From NCBI RefSeq assembly GCF_044647545.1, contig NZ_CP172818.1: a stretch of 64,000 nucleotides of DNA, one strand, 5' to 3'. The stretch is from Escherichia coli. GTDB lineage: Bacteria; Pseudomonadota; Gammaproteobacteria; Enterobacterales; Enterobacteriaceae. The stretch's first letter is position 1. Every line of letters starts with the position of its first letter. Of the stretch, positions 44,166-55,963 are shown piece after piece. Both the position numbers and the translations under genes were made by a program. Under the pieces are notes generated by a model. It was given only the letters and a program-made list of their open reading frames with translations, made no database searches and had not been told where the DNA came from.

Positions 44166-46365
<2,200 letters not shown>

Positions 46366-46425
46366 TCAAATGTCGAGATAACGATCACAAAAACGACAAT
46401 GTGAAAATTAATCAGAATGACAGGC

Positions 46426-46453
46426 AAAAAAAACGGCCTCCCGGGGAAGCCGT
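46426..46453 (-). terminator. Rho-independent terminator downstream of fbaB
   Basis: Minus-strand hairpin cggcttccccgggaggccg followed by T8 (+ strand aaaaaaaa at 46426-46433). Confidence 0.55.
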
Positions 46454-46536
46454 AACGAAGTGCGCGTGTTTTTATGCCGGATGCAACGTAAACGCCTTTT
46501 CTGTCCTACGGGGTGGTGCTGTTCATATGAGGCGCA

Positions 46537-47589
46537 TCAGGCGATAGTAATTTTGCTATCGAGATAAACGTCCTGTACGGCGTTAATCAGTTTCACGCCG
46601 TCAGCCATCGATTTCTTGAAGGCCTTACGTCCAAGAATCAGCCCCATTCCGCCTGCGCGTTTGTTGATAACCGCAGTACGCACTGCATCGCTGAGGTCAG
46701 TTTCACCGCCTGCAGCACCGCCGGAGTTTATCAACCCGGCCCGGCCCATATAGCAGTTAGCTAACTGATAACGCACCAGGTCAATCGGGTTTTCACTGGT
46801 CAGTTTGCTGTAGACTCGATCGTCGGTATAACCGTAATTAATCGCTTTATAGCCGCCGTTATTTTCCGCCATTTTTTGTTTGACGATATCTGCACCTATG
46901 GTTGCCGCCAGATGGTTCGCCTGACCAGTCAGGTCGGCGGAAACATGGTAATCAACGCCATCTTTCTTAAAGGCGGAGTTACGCAAATAGGCCCACAGCA
47001 CTGTCACCATGCCCAGCTCGTGCGCACGTTCAAAAGCCGCAGAAATTTCTTCAATCTGGCGACGTGACTCTTCCGAGCCAAAATAGATAGTCGCCCCAAC
47101 CGCCACCGCGCCCATATTGAACGCCTGCTCCACGCTGGCATACAGCGTTTGATCGTAGGTATTCGGGTAACTTAGCGTCTCGTTGTGATTAAGTTTGACG
47201 AGGAATGGAATGCGATGCGCGTAACGCCGCGATACCGATGCCAGCACGCCGTAAGTTGACGCCACACAGTTACAGCCCGCTTCGATCGCCAGTTCAACAA
47301 TGTTTTTCGGGTCAAAGTAGAGCGGGTTAGCGGCAAATGAAGCTCCGGCAGAATGCTCAACGCCCTGGTCAACCGGCAGAATAGAAAGATATCCTGTGCC
47401 AGCCAGACGCCCGGTGTTGTACAACGTCTGCATATTACGTAACACCGCTGGCGGGCGATTATTGTCAATCATCACGCGGTCTACGTAGTCATGTCCGGGG
47501 AGATAAAGCTGGTCAGAAGGAATAGTCATACAACGGTGCTGTAAAAGGTTGTCGGCGTCTTTGCCAAGCAACTGCGCAATATCTGTCAT
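46537..47589 (-). CDS. fbaB: Fructose-bisphosphate aldolase class I
   Basis: ORF 46537..47661; start at [24 protein letters not shown] (ATG 47587-47589), 350 aa. Confidence 0.9.
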
Positions 47590-47845
47590 TACTATGCTCC
47601 CGTAAATTCCGATTGGATATCGGCTATGGATTGTCCTGGCCCGCCTTTTGCGGGCAATCATAATCCTGGTCGTTACGGGCGAGTTTTTCCATCTTTTGGA
47701 TGTTTTTTCAGCGTTTTCTGTTGGCTCGATTCATCAGAAAAAATGTTACCGCGGTCAAGTTTTCACCGCAAAGGTATTTGAAAGGTATTATTAAGTGGTA
47801 TTGTCATCGCGTACCTTACATTACCTGTCATGAAGGAATTAAAAG

Positions 47846-49123
47846 ATGAAAACAACAGCAAAGCTGTCGTTCATGATGTTTGTTGAATGGTTTATCTGGG
47901 GCGCGTGGTTTGTGCCATTGTGGTTGTGGTTAAGTAAAAGCGGTTTTAGTGCCGGAGAAATTGGCTGGTCGTATGCCTGTACCGCCATTGCGGCGATCCT
48001 GTCGCCGATTCTGGTTGGCTCCATCACTGACCGCTTTTTCTCGGCACAGAAAGTGCTGGCGGTATTGATGTTCGCTGGTGCGGTGCTGATGTATTTCGCC
48101 GCGCAACAGACCACTTTTGCCGGGTTCTTCCCGTTACTGCTGGCCTACTCGCTAACCTATATGCCGACCATTGCGCTGACTAACAGTATCGCTTTTGCCA
48201 ACGTGCCGGATGTGGAGCGTGATTTCCCACGCATTCGTGTGATGGGGACTATCGGCTGGATTGCCTCTGGTCTGGCATGTGGATTCTTGCCGCAAATGCT
48301 GGGTTATGCCGATATCTCACCGACGAACATCCCGCTGCTGATTACTGCCGGAAGTTCTGCTCTGCTTGGTGTGTTTGCGTTTTTTCTGCCCGACACGCCA
48401 CCAAAAAGCACCGGCAAAATGGATATTAAAGTCATGCTCGGCCTGGATGCGCTGATCCTGCTGCGCGATAAGAACTTCCTCGTATTTTTCTTCTGTTCAT
48501 TCCTGTTTGCGATGCCACTGGCGTTCTATTACATCTTTGCCAACGGTTATCTGACCGAAGTTGGCATGAAAAACGCCACTGGCTGGATGACGCTCGGCCA
48601 GTTCTCTGAAATCTTCTTTATGCTGGCATTGCCGTTTTTCACTAAACGCTTTGGTATCAAAAAGGTATTGTTGCTTGGTCTAGTCACCGCTGCGATCCGC
48701 TATGGCTTCTTTATTTACGGTAGTGCGGATGAATATTTCACCTACGCGTTACTGTTCCTCGGTATTTTGCTGCACGGCGTAAGTTACGATTTTTACTACG
48801 TTACCGCTTACATCTATGTCGATAAAAAAGCTCCCGTGCATATGCGTACCGCCGCGCAGGGGCTGATCACGCTCTGCTGCCAGGGCTTCGGCAGTTTGCT
48901 CGGCTATCGTCTTGGCGGTGTGATGATGGAAAAGATGTTCGCTTATCAGGAACCGGTAAACGGACTGACTTTCAACTGGGCCGGGATGTGGACTTTCGGC
49001 GCGGTGATGATTGCCATTATCGCCGTGCTGTTCATGATTTTTTTCCGCGAATCCGACAACGAAATTACGGCTATCAAGGTCGATGATCGCGATATTGCGT
49101 TGACACAAGGGGAAGTTAAATGA
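47846..49123 (+). CDS. yegT: MFS nucleoside:H+ symporter-family transporter YegT
   Basis: 425-aa polytopic membrane ORF resembling NupG/XapB-type transporters. Confidence 0.85.
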   Translation: MKTTAKLSFMMFVEWFIWGAWFVPLWLWLSKSGFSAGEIGWSYACTAIAAILSPILVGSITDRFFSAQKVLAVLMFAGAVLMYFAAQQTTFAGFFPLLLAYSLTYMPTIALTNSIAFANVPDVERDFPRIRVMGTIGWIASGLACGFLPQMLGYADISPTNIPLLITAGSSALLGVFAFFLPDTPPKSTGKMDIKVMLGLDALILLRDKNFLVFFFCSFLFAMPLAFYYIFANGYLTEVGMKNATGWMTLGQFSEIFFMLALPFFTKRFGIKKVLLLGLVTAAIRYGFFIYGSADEYFTYALLFLGILLHGVSYDFYYVTAYIYVDKKAPVHMRTAAQGLITLCCQGFGSLLGYRLGGVMMEKMFAYQEPVNGLTFNWAGMWTFGAVMIAIIAVLFMIFFRESDNEITAIKVDDRDIALTQGEVK

Positions 49124-50124
49124 AAACAGAACGTATTCTCGGTGCTCTTTATGGGCAGGCGTTAGGGGATGCGATGGGGATGCCCTCCGAGCTTTGGCCA
49201 CGCAGCCGCGTTAAAGCACACTTTGGCTGGATTGATCATTTTCTGCCTGGACCAAAGGAGAATAACGCGGCCTGTTATTTTAACCGCGCCGAATTCACCG
49301 ACGATACCTCGATGGCGCTGTGTCTGGCGGATGCGTTACTGGAACGTAAAGGCAAGATCGATCCGGATCTGATTGGGCGTAATATTCTCGACTGGGCGCT
49401 GCGTTTCGACGCCTTTAACAAAAACGTACTAGGTCCGACCTCGAAGATTGCGCTTAACGCCATTCGCGACGGTAAACCCGTTGCTGAACTGGAAAATAAC
49501 GGCGTGACCAACGGCGCAGCGATGCGCGTCTCGCCATTAGGTTGTTTGCTTCCGGCGCACGATATTGACTCTTTTATTGATGATGTGGCGCTGGCCTCCA
49601 GCCCGACACATAAATCCGATCTGGCGGTTGCGGGGGCGGTAGTCATCGCATGGGCGATTTCTCGTGCCATTGACGGAGAAAGCTGGTCAGCGATTGTTGA
49701 TTCACTGCCTTCAATTGCGCGACATGCTCAACAAAAACGCATCACTACCTTCAGCGCCTCACTGGCAGCACGTCTGGAGATTGCGCTGAAAATTGTGCGC
49801 AATGCCGATGGCACCGAATCCGCCAGCGAACAGCTTTACCAGGTCGTTGGCGCAGGTACCAGCACTATTGAGTCCGTTCCGTGCGCCATTGCGCTGGTTG
49901 AACTGGCACAAACCGACCCGAACCGTTGCGCCGTCCTGTGCGCTAACCTTGGCGGCGACACAGACACCATCGGTGCTATGGCGACGGCAATTTGTGGCGC
50001 GTTGCATGGCGTTAACGCTATCGATCCTGCGTTAAAGGCGGAACTGGATGCAGTAAATCAGCTTGATTTCAACCGCTATGCCACGGCGCTGGCGAAGTAT
50101 CGCCAACAACGGGAGGCGATATGA
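49120..50124 (+). CDS. yegU: ADP-ribosylglycohydrolase-family protein YegU
   Basis: 334-aa ORF (MKTERILGALYGQALGDAMGMPSELW...DDTSM...) typical of the ADP-ribosylglycohydrolase fold; 4-bp overlap with yegT. Confidence 0.85.
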   Translation: MKTERILGALYGQALGDAMGMPSELWPRSRVKAHFGWIDHFLPGPKENNAACYFNRAEFTDDTSMALCLADALLERKGKIDPDLIGRNILDWALRFDAFNKNVLGPTSKIALNAIRDGKPVAELENNGVTNGAAMRVSPLGCLLPAHDIDSFIDDVALASSPTHKSDLAVAGAVVIAWAISRAIDGESWSAIVDSLPSIARHAQQKRITTFSASLAARLEIALKIVRNADGTESASEQLYQVVGAGTSTIESVPCAIALVELAQTDPNRCAVLCANLGGDTDTIGAMATAICGALHGVNAIDPALKAELDAVNQLDFNRYATALAKYRQQREAI

Positions 50125-51086
50125 GCGGCGCTCGATTACACACGCTGCTGCCTGAATTAGCCACGCGTCAGCCGGTGATGGTCGTCGGCGCGGCGGTCAT
50201 TGATGTGATCGCCGACGCTTATGCCCTCCCCTGGCGTGGGTGCGATATCGAACTGAAACAGCAGAGCGTTAACGTTGGCGGCTGTGCACTGAATATTGCC
50301 GTGGCATTAAAGCGCCTCGGCATCGAAGCGGGTAATGCCTTGCCGCTCGGTCAGGGGGTGTGGGCGGAGATTATTCGCAACCGGATGGCAAAAGAGGACT
50401 TAATCAGCCTGATCGATAACGCCGAAGGTGATAACGGCTGGTGTCTGGCGCTGGTTGAGCCGGATGGCGAACGCACTTTTATGTCATTCAGCGGTGTGGA
50501 AAATCAGTGGAATCGCCAGTGGCTGGCGCGATTAACCGTTGCGCCTGGCAGCCTGCTCTATTTTTCCGGTTATCAACTGGCCTCGCCCTGCGGCGAATTG
50601 TTAGTGGAATGGCTGGAAGAGCTGCAAGACGTGACGCCATTTATCGATTTTGGCCCACGTATTGGCGATATCCCGGATGCATTACTGGCGCGGATCATGG
50701 CCTGTCGACCTTTAGTGTCACTCAATCGTCAGGAGGCTGAGATTGCCGCCGAACGTTTTGCTTTATCCGCAGAGATAACAACACTAGGCAAGCAATGGCA
50801 GGAGAAATTTGCTGCGCCGTTGATCGTTCGTCTCGATAAAGAGGGCGCATGGTATTTCAGCAACGACGCTTCTGGCTGCATTCCGGCATTTCCAACGCAA
50901 GTTGTAGACACCATTGGGGCGGGCGACAGTCATGCCGGCGGCGTACTTGCCGGGCTGGCCTCTGGTCTGCCACTGGCGGATGCCGTATTACTGGGCAATG
51001 CAGTGGCGTCGTGGGTTGTCGGGCATCGGGGCGGTGATTGTGCGCCAACGCGCGAGGAACTACTCCTCGCACACAAAAACGTATAG
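50121..51086 (+). CDS. yegV: PfkB-family carbohydrate/nucleoside kinase YegV
   Basis: 321-aa ORF with ribokinase-like motifs (DTIGAGDSHAGGVLAGL near the C-terminus); 4-bp overlap with yegU. Confidence 0.85.
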   Translation: MSGARLHTLLPELATRQPVMVVGAAVIDVIADAYALPWRGCDIELKQQSVNVGGCALNIAVALKRLGIEAGNALPLGQGVWAEIIRNRMAKEDLISLIDNAEGDNGWCLALVEPDGERTFMSFSGVENQWNRQWLARLTVAPGSLLYFSGYQLASPCGELLVEWLEELQDVTPFIDFGPRIGDIPDALLARIMACRPLVSLNRQEAEIAAERFALSAEITTLGKQWQEKFAAPLIVRLDKEGAWYFSNDASGCIPAFPTQVVDTIGAGDSHAGGVLAGLASGLPLADAVLLGNAVASWVVGHRGGDCAPTREELLLAHKNV

Positions 51087-51806
51087 ATCGCTGCGACAGT
51101 GGCTGATGCTGTACTCAATAGGCCGTTGCTGTTGGTCAAGCGCCACTTGCTTGATCACCAGCACCGGTACTTTGCTATCTAACTGAATATGTGACTGAAA
51201 CTCGGCATCCGGCATCCGGGCGCTAACGCGGGAACGCGTACGTTGTGGGTAAATGTGCTGGCTGCGGAAGTAGTCATAAAGAGAAATTCCGATGGCATCA
51301 ACATCATGAATTAAATGCGCCGGAACCCACGATTCCTCAATCGATACCGCTTCTTCATCGACATAGCGAATACGCTTAAGCAAAAAGACATCACTTCCCG
51401 CTTCGACCGCCAGCTGCTGCGCAACTTCTTCGGGACATTTCACGACACGCTTGTTAACCCATAGCGTATCGGGCTTTTTCCCGCGCAATACCACCTGCTG
51501 AGAAAAACCTCGCGCTTCTTTCAACGAGTATTCGAAGATGTTGTTGATCTGCGTACCGTAACCACGCGAACGCGTCACCACGCCCTCTTCTTCCAGCGCC
51601 TGCATCGCCTTGCGCACCGTAATGCGCGAAACGCCGGTTAACTGACTTAAATCACGCTCACCGGGCAAAATATTGCCATGCTCCAGCACCCCGCTGCGCA
51701 CGGCATTTTTTACCGTTTCGGCAAACTTAATATAAAGCGGCGTGTTATCCGCCGCTAAAATACGTTCGTTCAGTTGGGCAATCAGCTGGGTATGCGCTTG
51801 TTCCAT
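51060..51806 (-). CDS. yegW: GntR/HutC-family transcriptional regulator YegW
   Basis: 248-aa ORF with N-terminal GntR HTH (LPGERDLSQLTGVSRITVRKAMQALEEEGVV) and UTRA-type C-terminus; 27-bp convergent overlap with yegV. Confidence 0.85.
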   Translation of the reverse strand: MEQAHTQLIAQLNERILAADNTPLYIKFAETVKNAVRSGVLEHGNILPGERDLSQLTGVSRITVRKAMQALEEEGVVTRSRGYGTQINNIFEYSLKEARGFSQQVVLRGKKPDTLWVNKRVVKCPEEVAQQLAVEAGSDVFLLKRIRYVDEEAVSIEESWVPAHLIHDVDAIGISLYDYFRSQHIYPQRTRSRVSARMPDAEFQSHIQLDSKVPVLVIKQVALDQQQRPIEYSISHCRSDLYVFVCEE

Positions 51807-51857
51807 TTGTCTTTTTCCTGCCGGGGAGTCTGGTGGGAGTATATCACTGCTTCTTAT

Positions 51858-52685
51858 TTAAGGCGTTTCTTTAATCCCATCAACGAATCCCTGCAACTCC
51901 TCCTCTGTGCCATTAAACACATTAAAATCCACCGGACCATTAATGCCATCTACCTGCCCACGGTCGGAATGCTGCCAGAAGCGCCAGGCCATGCCGTCAT
52001 TGTCCGGACGACGTTGATAGTAGTGAGCCACCCACCACGGATATTCATTGAAATAGCCCGCCAGATTCGTGTGATAAAAAACGGCTCCTGAGTAAATAAT
52101 CGGCTTTTTCCCCGTACTTTTTTCGACCATTTTTAGCCACTGACTTACCCGCTTGCGTAATTCTTTTGCCGATAATTTTCCCCGTTCTTCTACGTCCAGC
52201 ACGGCAGGGAAATCGCCTTGTGAGAAATCCACCGTTTGCAGAAATAATCTCGCCTGAACTGAAGCGGATACCGACGGGGAAAAATAATGATACGCCCCGC
52301 GCAGCAGGCCATTTTCGCGGCTTAGTTGCCAGTTACGCGAAAAATAGGGGTCCACCAGCTTTTCGCCTTCCGTCGCCTTAATAAAAGCAAACTGTAAGCG
52401 GATACCGTTGTCGCGCATTTTTGCCACCCGCTGCCAGTCGATCCGCTCCTGCCAGCGCGAAACATCTATTCCGTGAATGGTGTAACTGGCAGGAATGCGA
52501 ATAGCAAAAGATTTGACTGGACGATAACCGTAGAAGTGGATGTAGTCTTTAATCTGAATTGCTGTCGAGTAGAAAAAATTCACCGTCTGACGCGGATAAA
52601 TTGCAACGATGGAAATTAGCCCAAGAGCGCATAATAAAGCGGTGAATTTTTTTCGACTGGTGATTCTCAGCTGCATTGGTTTCAT
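51858..52685 (-). CDS. yegX: Glycoside hydrolase family 25 (lysozyme-like) protein YegX
   Basis: 275-aa ORF with N-terminal membrane anchor and GH25 core (HGIDVSRWQERIDWQRV...FIKATEG). Confidence 0.85.
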   Translation of the reverse strand: MKPMQLRITSRKKFTALLCALGLISIVAIYPRQTVNFFYSTAIQIKDYIHFYGYRPVKSFAIRIPASYTIHGIDVSRWQERIDWQRVAKMRDNGIRLQFAFIKATEGEKLVDPYFSRNWQLSRENGLLRGAYHYFSPSVSASVQARLFLQTVDFSQGDFPAVLDVEERGKLSAKELRKRVSQWLKMVEKSTGKKPIIYSGAVFYHTNLAGYFNEYPWWVAHYYQRRPDNDGMAWRFWQHSDRGQVDGINGPVDFNVFNGTEEELQGFVDGIKETP

Positions 52686-52740
52686 CCCTGAATGTCAGCG
52701 CCAAAGGCTGACAATAACCAAAGCAGCTATAGTACGGTGC

Positions 52741-53541
52741 TCACCACCAGGCGTGGAAGTGGTGAACCGGACCAATACCGTGACCAACTTCCAGCGTGTC
52801 GGCCTGGGCTAACGCCGATGAAAGCCAGCTTTTTGCCTCCTGTACGGTGTCAGCCCAGTTTGTATGGCGCGGGCGCAGTGCAGCCAACGCCGCAGAGAGC
52901 GTACAACCAGTGCCGTGAGTGTTTTTGGTCATAATGCGCGGTGCGGTAAACCGTTGTTCCCCCTCACGAGTAAACAGCCAGTCCGGGCTTTGCCCATCAT
53001 CCAGATGACCACCTTTCATTAGCACTGCGCCACAGCCCATCGCCAACAGCGATCGCCCTTGTTCCAGCATTTCCTGTTCGGTGCGCGCGTGTGGCGCGTC
53101 GAGCAAGGCGGCTGCTTCGGGCAAGTTTGGCGTTATTAATGAAACCTGTGGCAATAATCGACTGCGCAGCGTAGCAACCGCCGAAGGTGAAAGCAGCGGG
53201 TCGCCGCTTTTTGCCAGCATAACGGTGTCGAGTACCACGTTTTGGATCTGATAACGTTGCAACCGTTCTGCCACCGCTTCAACAATATCGGTTTCCGCCA
53301 ACATACCGATTTTAGTGGTGTCGATTCGCACATCACTGAACACCGAATCGAGCTGGGCGGCGACAAAATCAGGCTCAATGCGATACACCGACTGTACGCC
53401 ACGGGTATTTTGCGCCACCAGTGCAGTAATAACTGAGCAACCATAAGCGCCAAGTGCCGAGAAGGTTTTAAGATCGGCCTGAATCCCCGCACCACCACTC
53501 GGATCAGTACCGGCAATCGTCAGAGCGTTAATTCGTTTCAT
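52741..53541 (-). CDS. thiD: Hydroxymethylpyrimidine/phosphomethylpyrimidine kinase
   Basis: 266-aa [37 protein letters not shown]...; 4-bp overlap with thiM. Confidence 0.9.
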
Positions 53542-54326
53542 GCCTGCACCTCCTGCGTCAATTGCCAGAGCGCATCAAGGAAATGTGGAACAAAACTGCC
53601 TGGCCCCTCGCTTCTGGCAACTGCGCGTTCTCCGGCTTGTTTCATCCAGTGACAGGCAGATGCGATATTTTCCAACGTATCGCCTGGTAGCGCACAACAG
53701 GCAGCGACAACCGCCGATAATGCACAGCCAGTTCCTACCACTTTGGTCATTAGCGGATCGCCACCGTGAATGCCAACGATACGATGTCCATCGGTAACAT
53801 AATCCACCTCGCCAGTGACCACGACGATTGCGCCAGTTTCCCGTGCCAGTGTTTGTGCAGCAGGTATCGCGTTAGCTGCGGCATCAGTGGTATCCACTCC
53901 CCGTCCGCCATTAGCAACGCCAGCTAATGCCATGATTTCCGAAGCATTACCACGTATGGCGGTTGGCTTATGAGACAGAAGTTCCAGACAAAAACGGCGG
54001 CGATAATCGAGTGCACCCACCGCTACTGGATCAAGCGTCCAGGGTGTTTGAGAGCGTTTTGCCTGTTCAACGGCGGCACGCATCGCCTGTGCGCGTGGCT
54101 GCGTCAGCGTGCCAACGTTAATCAGCAACGCACTGGCGATTGCCGCAAACTGACTGGCCTCTTCGGTTTCGATGACCATCGCTGGCGATGCACCGAGCGC
54201 CAGTAAGGTATTGGCAGTAAAGGTTTGCACCACATCATTGGTCATACAGTGCACAAGGGGGGAATGTTTGTGAAAAAGATGTAACGCGTGCGCAGATTGC
54301 GCGGAACTCAGCAGGTCGACTTGCAT
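53538..54326 (-). CDS. thiM: Hydroxyethylthiazole kinase
   Basis: 262-aa [42 protein letters not shown]... Confidence 0.9.
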
Positions 54327-54334
54327 AGTTTGCT

Positions 54335-54470
54335 CCTGCCATAACGTGAAGAAGCAATGACCTGGTGGTCCGTGACTTCCCTACGCTGGCATTATCCAGA
54401 TCAGGTGATACGGGTATTTCTCAGCCTTCACGCAGAAGGGCACCCCGAGTCGTTTGGTTGCGATAATAAA
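54335..54470 (-). promoter_or_regulatory. TPP (thi-box) riboswitch in the thiM leader
   Basis: + strand 54374-54446 is the reverse complement of GGGGTGCCCTTCTGCGTGAAGGCTGAGAAATACCCGTATCACCTGATCTGGATAATGCCAGCGTAGGGAAGTC, the thiM aptamer with its CUGAGA element. Confidence 0.8.
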
Positions 54471-54548
54471 TCGCAGAGGAGGATGGTAATGTCCAGCGCA
54501 CGCGTTGTAAACGGGGAAAAACGGCGGTATTACAATAACGTTGTGAAA

Positions 54549-54821
54549 TTATTTGATATAAGAATCCAGCACCTTCAGAACGACATCCAGATCTTCTTCA
54601 CGTTTTAGCTCATCCCCCTGGTGAACGATGTGTTCCGTCAGATGGCCTTTAATCACTTCCCGCATCAGACCGTTTACCGCGCCACGGATAGCAGCAATCT
54701 GTTGTAAAACTGCAGCGCATTCGTGCGGCTCGTCGAGCATTTTCTTGAGCGCCACGACCTGGCCCTGAATCTTACTGGCACGCGCTTTCAGTTTCTGTTT
54801 ATCACGGATGGTATGAGACAT
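54549..54821 (-). CDS. rcnR: Ni/Co-responsive transcriptional repressor RcnR (CsoR/RcnR family)
   Basis: 90-aa [55 protein letters not shown]... Confidence 0.9.
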
Positions 54822-54869
54822 GGCAACACCTGGTTAACAAGAATATGAAAAATCATAGCACTATTAATC

Positions 54870-54904
54870 TACTGGGGGGTAGTATCAGGTACTGGGGGGG
54901 AGTA
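54870..54904. promoter_or_regulatory. Two RcnR operator sites (TACT-G6-N-AGTA) in the rcnR-rcnA intergenic region
   Basis: tactggggggtagta at 54870-54884 and tactgggggggagta at 54890-54904. Confidence 0.7.
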
Positions 54905-54941
54905 GAATCAGATTGCCGAATTAATACTAAGAATTATTATC

Positions 54942-55745
54942 ATGACCGAATTTACCACTCTTCTTCAGCAAGGAAATGCCTGGTTCTTCATCCCCAGCGC
55001 CATCTTACTTGGTGCGCTTCATGGCCTGGAACCAGGGCACTCAAAAACGATGATGGCGGCGTTTATCATCGCCATCAAAGGCACCATTAAACAGGCGGTG
55101 ATGCTCGGACTGGCAGCAACCATTTCGCATACCGCGGTGGTCTGGTTGATTGCCTTTGGCGGGATGGTAATCAGCAAACGTTTTACTGCTCAATCTGCAG
55201 AACCGTGGCTCCAGTTGATTTCCGCGGTGATCATTATTGGCACCGCGTTCTGGATGTTCTGGCGTACCTGGCGCGGCGAACGCAACTGGCTGGAGAATAT
55301 GCACGAGCACGAGCACGAGCACGAGCATGATCATGAGCATCATCACCATCACGAACATGGCGAGTATCAGGATGCCCATGCACGAGCCCATTCCAATGAC
55401 ATTAAAAGACGATTTGATGGTAGAGAGGTCACCAACTGGCAAATTTTGTTATTTGGCTTAACCGGTGGCCTTATCCCCTGCCCGGCAGCAATTACCGTGC
55501 TGTTGATTTGCATTCAGTTGAAAGCCCTGACACTGGGCGCAACACTGGTCGTCAGTTTTAGCATTGGCCTGGCGTTAACGCTTGTCACCGTAGGCGTTGG
55601 CGCAGCAATCAGCGTTCAGCAGGTCGCAAAACGCTGGAGCGGATTTAACACTCTCGCTAAACGCGCCCCCTATTTTTCCAGTCTGTTGATTGGCTTAGTT
55701 GGTGTGTATATGGGCGTACATGGCTTCATGGGCATAATGCGATAA
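54942..55745 (+). CDS. rcnA: Nickel/cobalt efflux protein RcnA
   Basis: 267-aa membrane ORF with His-rich cytoplasmic loop (HEHEHEHEHDHEHHHHHEHGEY). Confidence 0.9.
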   Translation: MTEFTTLLQQGNAWFFIPSAILLGALHGLEPGHSKTMMAAFIIAIKGTIKQAVMLGLAATISHTAVVWLIAFGGMVISKRFTAQSAEPWLQLISAVIIIGTAFWMFWRTWRGERNWLENMHEHEHEHEHDHEHHHHHEHGEYQDAHARAHSNDIKRRFDGREVTNWQILLFGLTGGLIPCPAAITVLLICIQLKALTLGATLVVSFSIGLALTLVTVGVGAAISVQQVAKRWSGFNTLAKRAPYFSSLLIGLVGVYMGVHGFMGIMR

Positions 55746-55963
55746 CTCAATCCTTTAGGCTTGCATGTTATCTTCAGCCCAGGATGATTCTTAAATCAGC
55801 TATTTCCGCTGACTCTCTGCTCGCTAAGGATGCTTTTAGAGCATCCTTTCATTTACACTTTTTACGAAATCATGGGATCACTAACAAAATATCGCTTGTC
55901 AGTTATATTGTATGGCAGGAAAGATATGCGACTGATATTACAGATCCCCAAAGTGGAGAGTTT

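Follow-up and report, generated by a model that had tools for sequence, protein, structure and literature searches.

We analyzed the yegTUV-yegW locus of Escherichia coli, which occupies positions 47,846 to 51,806 of a 64,000-nucleotide stretch of contig NZ_CP172818.1 (RefSeq assembly GCF_044647545.1), referred to below as the window. The locus comprises three co-directional genes encoding a permease, a hydrolase and a kinase, followed by a convergent gene encoding a transcriptional repressor. The limits and order of these four genes in an earlier annotation based on the sequence alone (the original prediction) agree to the base with the list of open reading frames (ORFs), and the identities assigned there (transporter, ADP-ribosylglycohydrolase, PfkB kinase and GntR regulator) are upheld by Pfam E-values far beyond chance. 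On the basis of the ORF list and Pfam, the locus contains the following elements:

47846-49123, plus strand: yegT, 425 amino acids; NHS-family proton symporter of the major facilitator superfamily (MFS), putative riboside importer
49120-50124, plus strand: yegU, 334 amino acids; metal-dependent glycohydrolase of the ADP-ribosylglycohydrolase (ARH) fold, proposed ribosyl-5-phosphate glycosidase
50121-51086, plus strand: yegV, 321 amino acids; kinase of the PfkB/ribokinase superfamily, proposed riboside 5'-kinase
51060-51806, minus strand: yegW (ggaR), 248 amino acids; GntR/HutC repressor with a UTRA effector domain
51060-51086: convergent, tail-to-tail overlap (27 bp) of the yegV and yegW coding ends

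The yegT/yegU and yegU/yegV junctions are both 4-bp start/stop overlaps with the sequence ATGA, as originally read, and Shine-Dalgarno-like purine-rich runs precede yegU (GGGGAAG) and yegV (GGGAGG). The overlaps suggest that the three genes are translationally coupled. The yegU/yegV overlap is seen again in Enterobacterales and in seven Firmicutes and beta-proteobacterial loci, while the 27-bp overlap between yegV and yegW, located where it had been predicted, is exactly kept in 23 Enterobacteriaceae and Pectobacterium loci. A promoter and terminator scan, at chance level overall, located no terminator-like site between yegV and yegW, so that antisense transcription is forced in what constitutes an excludon arrangement. 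The two genes are convergent and their transcripts overlap, as indicated by the shared coding sequence and by the inclusion of the pair among 165 convergent excludons of E. coli MG1655 derived from RNA-seq (PMC12288877). Several RefSeq E. coli chromosomes match the yegTUV-yegW stretch at 100% identity and have the same gene names annotated, and with the locus present at a coverage of at least 80% in 5416 of 5426 complete E. coli genomes it is part of the E. coli core genome. The original prediction was hence real and correctly read, but the operon was already known, annotated and partly characterized, and the prediction missed that YegW had been studied and renamed GgaR, with ADP-glucose as effector and a glycogen phenotype, and that a crystal structure of YegT (8ZOJ) is available.

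Regulation of the operon has been established experimentally by others. Saito et al. (2024; PMC10819704) renamed YegW as GgaR and described it as a single-target repressor of yegTUV, the yegTUV locus being its only genomic binding locus in chromatin immunoprecipitation on microarrays (ChIP-chip). Two regions are bound: 190 bp upstream of yegT, identified by gel shift and ChIP-chip, and a weaker one spanning nucleotides 571-869 inside yegT, the corresponding fragment (probe 5) being bound at higher protein concentration; no operator motif was defined (PMC10819704). Northern blotting places yegT, yegU and yegV on a single 3.3-kb mRNA, in line with the co-expression expected by the original prediction, and this transcript is undetectable in the wild type and derepressed approximately 30-fold in a yegW deletion, with fbaB expression unaffected by YegW (PMC10819704). 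In gel shift assays the repressor is released from DNA by ADP-glucose at 10-100 µM, and not by glucose or ADP, and raising glucose from 0.25% to 1% increases yegTUV expression only about 3-fold, versus 30-fold in the yegW deletion (PMC10819704). Deletion of yegW also leads to glycogen levels two to three times higher, and the yegV deletion is listed among low-glycogen mutants (PMC10819704).

The hydrolase YegU matches the ADP_ribosyl_GH profile (PF03747) over positions 1-285 of 287 with 225 bits (cut-off 26.2, E = 1.6e-66), and its AlphaFold2 model, with a predicted local distance difference test of 97.7 and a predicted TM-score of 0.96, has the all-helical ARH fold. The nearest structures retrieved with Foldseek are MJ1187 (TM-score 0.81), deposited as 'Hypothetical protein MJ1187' with no listed function, and DraG and ARH3 (TM-score 0.75-0.78). 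Alignment to human ARH3 recovers all the ARH metal and catalytic residues on which the predicted glycohydrolase activity depends (E24 corresponding to E41; T60-D61-D62 to T76-D77-D78; and D280, D282 and T283 to D314, D316 and T317). Among 50 YegU homologues with 31-70% identity, no variation is seen at D61, D282 and H164, and conservation reaches at least 90% for the remaining ligands except E24. YegU therefore resembles ARH3, DraG and MJ1187 in fold, in the residues of its binuclear metal site and in its catalytic Glu, but differs from them in sequence (20-27% identity) and in a genomic context of small-molecule uptake rather than of a transferase/hydrolase pair. It also departs from ARH3 at F143 and Y149, which we take to be the residues stacking on adenine: in an alignment with approximately 22% identity these positions correspond to YegU N126 and V129, with a three-residue deletion alongside, and position 126 is mostly Lys or Arg in the YegU family. 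Because the stacking residues are not kept, YegU seems unlikely to bind an adenosine moiety in the manner of ARH3, although the comparison is suggestive only. In the June 2026 release of NCBIfam no equivalog model is passed by YegU, YegV or YegW, YegU scoring 81 bits against a cut-off of 337 for DraG and 70 against 490 for Tri1.

The kinase YegV matches the PfkB profile (PF00294) with 189 bits (E = 1.3e-55) and aligns end to end with the E. coli ribokinase RbsK. Residues D28, G53, G54, N58 and D269, equivalent to RbsK D16, G41, G42, N46 and D255, are invariant in 58 family members, thereby preserving the Asp that contacts the ribofuranose diol, the GG motif, the Asn and the catalytic Asp of the GAGD motif. 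The remaining ribose contacts are replaced. The position of RbsK N14 is always hydrophobic in the YegV family (V or other), K43 is Cys in 55 of the 58 members and E143 is changed to A in E. coli YegV, which thus keeps only D16 and N46 from the contact set N14, D16, K43, N46 and E143. The best NCBIfam match, the RbsK equivalog TIGR02152, is failed by a wide difference (81 bits versus a cut-off of 299.65). From these residues, YegV looks like a kinase for a ribofuranosyl compound other than free ribose; as of mid-2025 the protein was still cited as an uncharacterized sugar kinase (PMC12506659).

The permease YegT belongs to the Nuc_H_symport family (E = 1.3e-183) and exceeds the TIGR00889 cut-off of 446 with a score of 653 bits. 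It shares with NupG and XapB the 12-helix MFS fold, a ribose-contact triad and the GXXXD motif of transmembrane helix 10 (PMC11979927), which spans G311-D315 and aligns with NupG G319-D323. The NupG residues contacting ribose according to docking, R136, T140 and E264 (PMC8042404), are kept in YegT as R131, T135 and E255, whereas the NupG base contacts are altered (Q225 to A226, N228 to Y229, Y318 to H310, F143 to W138 and F322 to Y314; PMC8042404) in a protein with 27% overall identity to NupG. This pattern of a retained ribose site and a modified base site is accompanied by negative results for canonical nucleosides. Xiao et al. (2025; PMC11979927), who solved the YegT crystal structure at 3.1 Å (PDB 8ZOJ), obtained no isothermal titration calorimetry signal with uridine, adenosine, cytidine or guanosine, and uridine, cytidine, xanthosine and gemcitabine were not transported in a separate study (PMC11241209). 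Besides the engineered K267A, the crystallized K-12 protein and the window protein differ by V80L, M151I and A380S, which are ordinary strain polymorphisms.

The repressor YegW contains a GntR domain (PF00392, 59 bits, E = 3.1e-16) and a UTRA domain (PF07702, 125.5 bits, E = 1.8e-36), and its nearest solved relative is the sugar-phosphate sensor NagR/YvoA. The NagR pocket residues R133, R135, S165 and Y167, which we assume to be those binding phosphate, are conserved in YegW as R145, R147, S175 and Y177. As in NagR/YvoA and the HutC repressors, a winged helix is combined with a UTRA domain, repression is local and restricted to a single operon, and the candidate half-sites contain GGT. YegW differs from NagR/YvoA in its reported effector, ADP-glucose, and in the candidate operator described here, which would consist of a direct GGTAT pair 11 bp apart plus a second site in the first structural gene, rather than of a single palindromic dre-type site. 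The candidate regulatory elements are:

47762-47791, plus strand: candidate sigma-70 promoter of yegTUV from a consensus scan; TTCACC, 18-nt spacer, TATTAT
47773-47817, plus strand: candidate primary YegW/GgaR operator O1, GGTATTTGAAAGGTATTATTAAGTGGTATT...GTACC; direct GGTAT repeats 11 bp apart, a third GGTAT and an inverted GTACC
48653-48690, plus strand: candidate secondary operator O2 inside yegT (ORF nucleotides 808-845), GGTATCAAAAAGGTATTGTTGCTTGGTCTAGTCACCGC

O1 falls within the published 190-bp GgaR-bound region upstream of yegT and O2 within the published probe 5, and the two candidates (47773-47810 and 48653-48690) are 74% identical over 38 nt. Their common core, GGTAT-N6-GGTAT, sets two direct repeats one helical turn apart and occurs exactly twice on both strands of the 64-kb window, at O1 and O2, against approximately 0.01 occurrences expected by chance. 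Thirty-three gamma-proteobacterial loci (Escherichia, Citrobacter, Enterobacter, Pectobacterium, Budvicia, Tatumella, Rahnella, Hafnia and Vibrio) keep a relaxed version of this core, GGTAY-N6-GGTAY, ahead of the operon, in most cases with a third GGTAT and an inverted GTACC after it. The motif is also present upstream of the YegU homologue in Brenneria and Edwardsiella, at loci that lack yegT. It was not found in the Firmicutes, Actinobacteria and Chloroflexi loci, and the motif is accordingly lineage-specific. Inside yegT, the O2 core GGTAT-N6-GGTATT is kept through synonymous codons (GGT-ATY-AAR-AAG-GTA-TTR) in 12 of 31 orthologues, compared to 0.11 expected for this six-codon core from the codon usage of each gene, an expectation that ignores phylogeny and hence the non-independence of the orthologues. 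We put forward GGTAT-N6-GGTAT as a candidate YegW operator. The promoter scan was at chance level overall (5 sites found versus 4.8 expected), and the candidate yegTUV promoter is of interest only because its -10 hexamer, TATTAT, falls within the conserved operator repeat; its assignment is tentative. Under this arrangement YegW may repress transcription by promoter occlusion, perhaps aided by looping to the internal site 880 bp away.

Homologues of YegU and their genomic neighborhoods were also compiled. A search for close homologues returned only Enterobacteriaceae orthologues without informative names, whereas an exhaustive search retrieved 6978 homologues at E ≤ 0.001, 236 of them at E ≤ 1e-30, with many spanning 600-760 amino acids. 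Nine of the ten long proteins examined are fusions of ARH and PfkB domains, with ARH first in five and PfkB first in four; the remaining one (P0158, 692 amino acids) is a tandem ARH-ARH protein. The neighborhood scan considered one genome per species and genes up to three positions from the YegU homologue at 79 loci. Ten of these, including several from high-GC Actinobacteria, were left out because simple ORF calling missed the YegU homologue, resulting in the following counts for the 69 loci in which it was called:

YegV-like kinase: 60 of 69 loci, in gamma- and beta-proteobacteria, Firmicutes and Chloroflexi
YegW-like GntR/UTRA regulator: 48 of 69 loci, across phyla
YegT-like NHS permease: 30 of 69 loci, in gamma-proteobacteria only
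NCS1 permease: 16 of 69 loci, in Bacilli, Lactobacillaceae, Dialister, Sutterellaceae, Aeromonas and Chloroflexi
PnuC-family transporter: 11 of 69 loci, in Lachnospiraceae and relatives

The permease families were confirmed by Pfam, and the PnuC-like protein scores above the TIGR01528 cut-off. Other contexts are found on the contigs that encode fusions: ECF transporters beside a GntR/UTRA gene (L082-L084 and L086), a binding-protein-dependent ABC system together with a second ARH gene (L085), and an NCS1 permease with an isochorismatase-family gene and an ARH-PfkB fusion (L081). With importers of the NHS, NCS1, PnuC, ECF and ABC families interchanging around a constant pair, the invariant core of the system is the hydrolase and the kinase, usually accompanied by a HutC-type repressor and supplemented with each lineage's own importer. 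Among the compounds carried by characterized members of these importer families are nucleosides, nucleobases, and vitamins or their ribosides, and we know of no member that carries nucleotide sugars.

Several of these loci have features of their own. The isochorismatase-family gene of L081 (1555-2136) overlaps both the NCS1 permease gene and the ARH-PfkB fusion gene by 4 bp and, since the isochorismatase fold family includes nicotinamidase, it provides a weak hint of a nicotinamide-type aglycone in that organism. In the metagenome contigs L082 and L083 genes for a phosphopentomutase-like metalloenzyme, an NCS1 permease and a DeoC aldolase come after the one for a PfkB-ARH fusion, with a His_Phos_1 phosphatase gene lying on the opposite strand just upstream of the GntR/UTRA regulator gene, and the whole forms a larger pentose and nucleoside catabolic island. 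In two Vibrio loci (L025 and L026) yegW is co-directional with yegV and an additional permease gene, of the MFS_1 family, stands between the two, giving these loci two different MFS permeases and no convergent overlap.

We interpret yegTUV, with a probability of about one half, as a normally silent, repressor-controlled pathway for the import and processing of a non-canonical riboside. In this pathway, YegT would import the riboside by proton symport and YegV would phosphorylate its 5'-OH, trapping it in the cell. YegU, acting as a metal-dependent enzyme of the ARH fold, would then cleave the bond at ribose C1, releasing the free aglycone and ribose-5-phosphate, which would enter the pentose-phosphate pathway. 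Bound to tandem GGTAT repeats at the promoter and 880 bp downstream, inside yegT, YegW would silence the operon until released by a phosphate-bearing effector, and read-through of the induced operon into the overlapping yegW might further lower repressor synthesis, so that antisense yegTUV transcription could provide positive feedback. A kinase-first order, with a 5'-phosphate intermediate, is suggested by four considerations: uptake through PnuC-type transporters depends on phosphorylation of the transported molecule, the YegV family departs from ribokinase at the positions of RbsK N14 and K43, YegW has a phosphate-type, NagR-like effector pocket, and the effector reported for it, ADP-glucose, carries phosphate. 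Candidate substrates are ribosides of the nicotinamide or nicotinate riboside type, of the imidazole type and of the alpha-ribazole type, as well as modified nucleosides. The original prediction had proposed uptake and catabolism of an unusual ribosylated compound; synteny, fusions and transporter swapping strengthen that proposal, the negative results with the canonical nucleosides tested fit it, and the ADP-ribose-like molecule it had included among the options is the least supported of them.

The logic proposed for yegTUV is that of the E. coli pseudouridine genes psuT (yeiM), psuK (yeiC) and psuG (yeiN), in which a dedicated nucleoside permease is combined with a PfkB-family kinase producing the 5'-phosphate and a glycosidase generating ribose-5-phosphate and the free base. 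The yeg genes differ from this system in that the YegU glycosidase has the ARH fold (PF03747) instead of the PsuG fold, in that the permease is of the NHS rather than the CNT family (PsuT is mentioned in PMC11241209), and in that the order of steps is deduced indirectly. A second parallel is the Salmonella STM4065-4066-4067 operon, which resembles yegTUV in grouping a permease gene with one for a PfkB kinase active on aminoimidazole riboside and with an ARH-family gene, STM4067, whose mutant is attenuated, with reduced persistence in the pig gut (PMC3161100). This is a separate, paralogous locus, Salmonella having in addition a true yegU orthologue with 83% identity, and the YegV matches in the PDB at E ≤ 1e-5 do not include the solved aminoimidazole riboside kinase. 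The operon is presumably controlled by STM4068, a GntR regulator.

Tentatively, and with the odds slightly against so wide an extension, YegU and its relatives could be small-molecule phosphoribohydrolases, a functional class new to the ARH fold, that act on the riboside-5'-phosphate delivered by a dedicated PfkB riboside kinase, possibly with the preference for the alpha anomer that is typical of this fold. They would define a widespread salvage route, common in gut bacteria and served by interchangeable importers, for a vitamin-like or a host- or diet-derived riboside. On this view, the true inducer would be a phosphorylated compound that ADP-glucose imitates, and the change in glycogen would be a side effect.

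A number of observations weigh against the kinase-first riboside pathway. The substrates of characterized ARH enzymes are alpha-linked ADP-ribose conjugates, and we know of no ARH enzyme acting on a mononucleotide-like substrate. Our literature search found no enzyme biochemistry for either YegU or YegV, and the catalytic Glu of YegU, E24, is Glu in only 35 of the 50 homologues. In Brenneria (L028), Edwardsiella (L030 and L032) and Serratia (L038), YegU homologues with 61-65% identity lack an adjacent yegT or yegV. With a YegW-like regulator (36-40% identity) beside the homologue in L030, L032 and L038, and GGTAT-N6-GGTAY just upstream of it in L028, L030 and L032, the hydrolase alone appears to be under YegW-type control in these kinase-less loci, which is a poor fit with an obligatory kinase partner. 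As regards the operator, a 12-codon sliding test of synonymous conservation does not single out O2, which ranks 273 of 409; significance is reached only in the narrower test of its six-codon core. Finally, the sole demonstrated effector, ADP-glucose, and the sole phenotype, glycogen accumulation (PMC10819704), are explained only indirectly by a riboside pathway.

The same proteins could also operate in the reverse order, with YegU freeing ribose and an aglycone from an imported riboside or ribosyl conjugate and YegV acting as a dedicated ribokinase. We regard such ribose scavenging as unlikely. Even though YegV finds its best matches in NCBIfam and the PDB among ribokinases, the 81 bits it attains remain far from the 300-bit ribokinase cut-off and the family replaces RbsK N14 with hydrophobic residues and K43 mostly with Cys. 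E. coli, moreover, already possesses RbsK, and PnuC-type importers call for a kinase acting on the transported molecule itself. The NagR phosphate-binding residues kept in YegW point to a phosphorylated pathway intermediate as the signal, a role for which ribose-5-phosphate would be unspecific. Synteny and fusions are equally compatible with either order, and the ribose-utilization systems of Bacteroidetes, which combine ribokinases with a permease and sometimes with ARH-family enzymes, do favor the reverse one, since the ARH genes are coupled there to true ribokinases and hydrolysis is proposed to come first, a logic that also counts against the pathway we prefer (bioRxiv 10.1101/574913).

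A direct link to glycogen metabolism, in which YegW senses ADP-glucose and YegTUV supplies or handles this compound for glycogen accumulation (Saito et al. 2024), has direct experimental results behind it and is nevertheless, in our assessment, rather improbable. Release of YegW by 10-100 µM ADP-glucose and not by glucose or ADP, the roughly 30-fold increase in yegTUV expression and doubled to tripled glycogen of the yegW deletion, and the low glycogen of the yegV deletion (PMC10819704) all speak for it. The effector panel, however, consisted of those three ligands, without ADP-ribose, AMP, nicotinamide mononucleotide or riboside phosphates, and going from 0.25% to 1% glucose brings an induction of only about 3-fold, far from the 30-fold effect of the deletion. 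The same hydrolase-kinase pair is served in several phyla by PnuC, NCS1 and ECF importers, families not known to us as carriers of nucleotide sugars, nor do we know of any ARH or PfkB chemistry that makes or cleaves a glucosyl-pyrophosphate. The effect on glycogen could be indirect, for instance, and speculatively, if changed pools of AMP or ribose-5-phosphate act on GlgC. Very improbable, in turn, is a role for YegU in reversing protein or nucleic-acid ADP-ribosylation in the way of DraG, ARH3 or Tri1. Its Pfam membership, ARH fold, complete catalytic site and weak NCBIfam similarity to DraG and Tri1 would allow for such a function, but its scores are far below the equivalog cut-offs (81/337 and 70/490), the adenine-stacking residues of ARH3 are not conserved, no ADP-ribosyltransferase was seen in the recurrent neighborhood of its homologues, and those homologues are linked, and even fused, to a small-molecule kinase beside importers.

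The yegTUV-yegW locus is among the remaining core operons of E. coli K-12 without established biochemistry, and its hydrolase-kinase pair extends across Proteobacteria, Firmicutes and Chloroflexi, including many gut organisms. Knowing the substrate would extend the metabolism of gut microbes by a nutrient or salvage route and clarify why derepression of yegTUV alters glycogen storage; if the riboside pathway is true, it would constitute the first small-molecule catabolic role for the ADP-ribosylglycohydrolase fold. The contribution of this work lies in the candidate operator, the residue-level signatures, the fusion and neighborhood (Rosetta-stone) evidence and a testable pathway model, with the operator motif and the residue signatures making the questions of substrate and activity directly testable.

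The operon is flanked by the divergent fbaB on one side and by yegX, thiD and thiM on the other. We considered fbaB and thiD as parts of the system and rejected both, their adjacency being confined to Enterobacteriaceae and fbaB not being regulated by YegW (PMC10819704); yegX was likewise rejected, its adjacency being confined to Escherichia. The yegX gene (51858-52685, minus strand), of the GH25 lysozyme-like type, separates yegW from thiD in the Escherichia loci alone (the window and L002), whereas in Citrobacter, Kluyvera, Enterobacter and others thiD directly follows yegW; yegX hence looks like a lineage-specific insertion outside the yeg module. An Rfam search of positions 45000-56000 returned no riboswitch or RNA family upstream of yegT, its sole match being the thiamine pyrophosphate riboswitch upstream of thiM (54361-54457, minus strand; 71 bits versus a gathering score of 54). 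The longest ORF of fbaB (46537-47661, minus strand) encodes 374 amino acids, and RefSeq annotates a shorter protein of 350 amino acids (46537-47589), from which the spacer between fbaB and yegT measures 256 bp instead of 184 bp.

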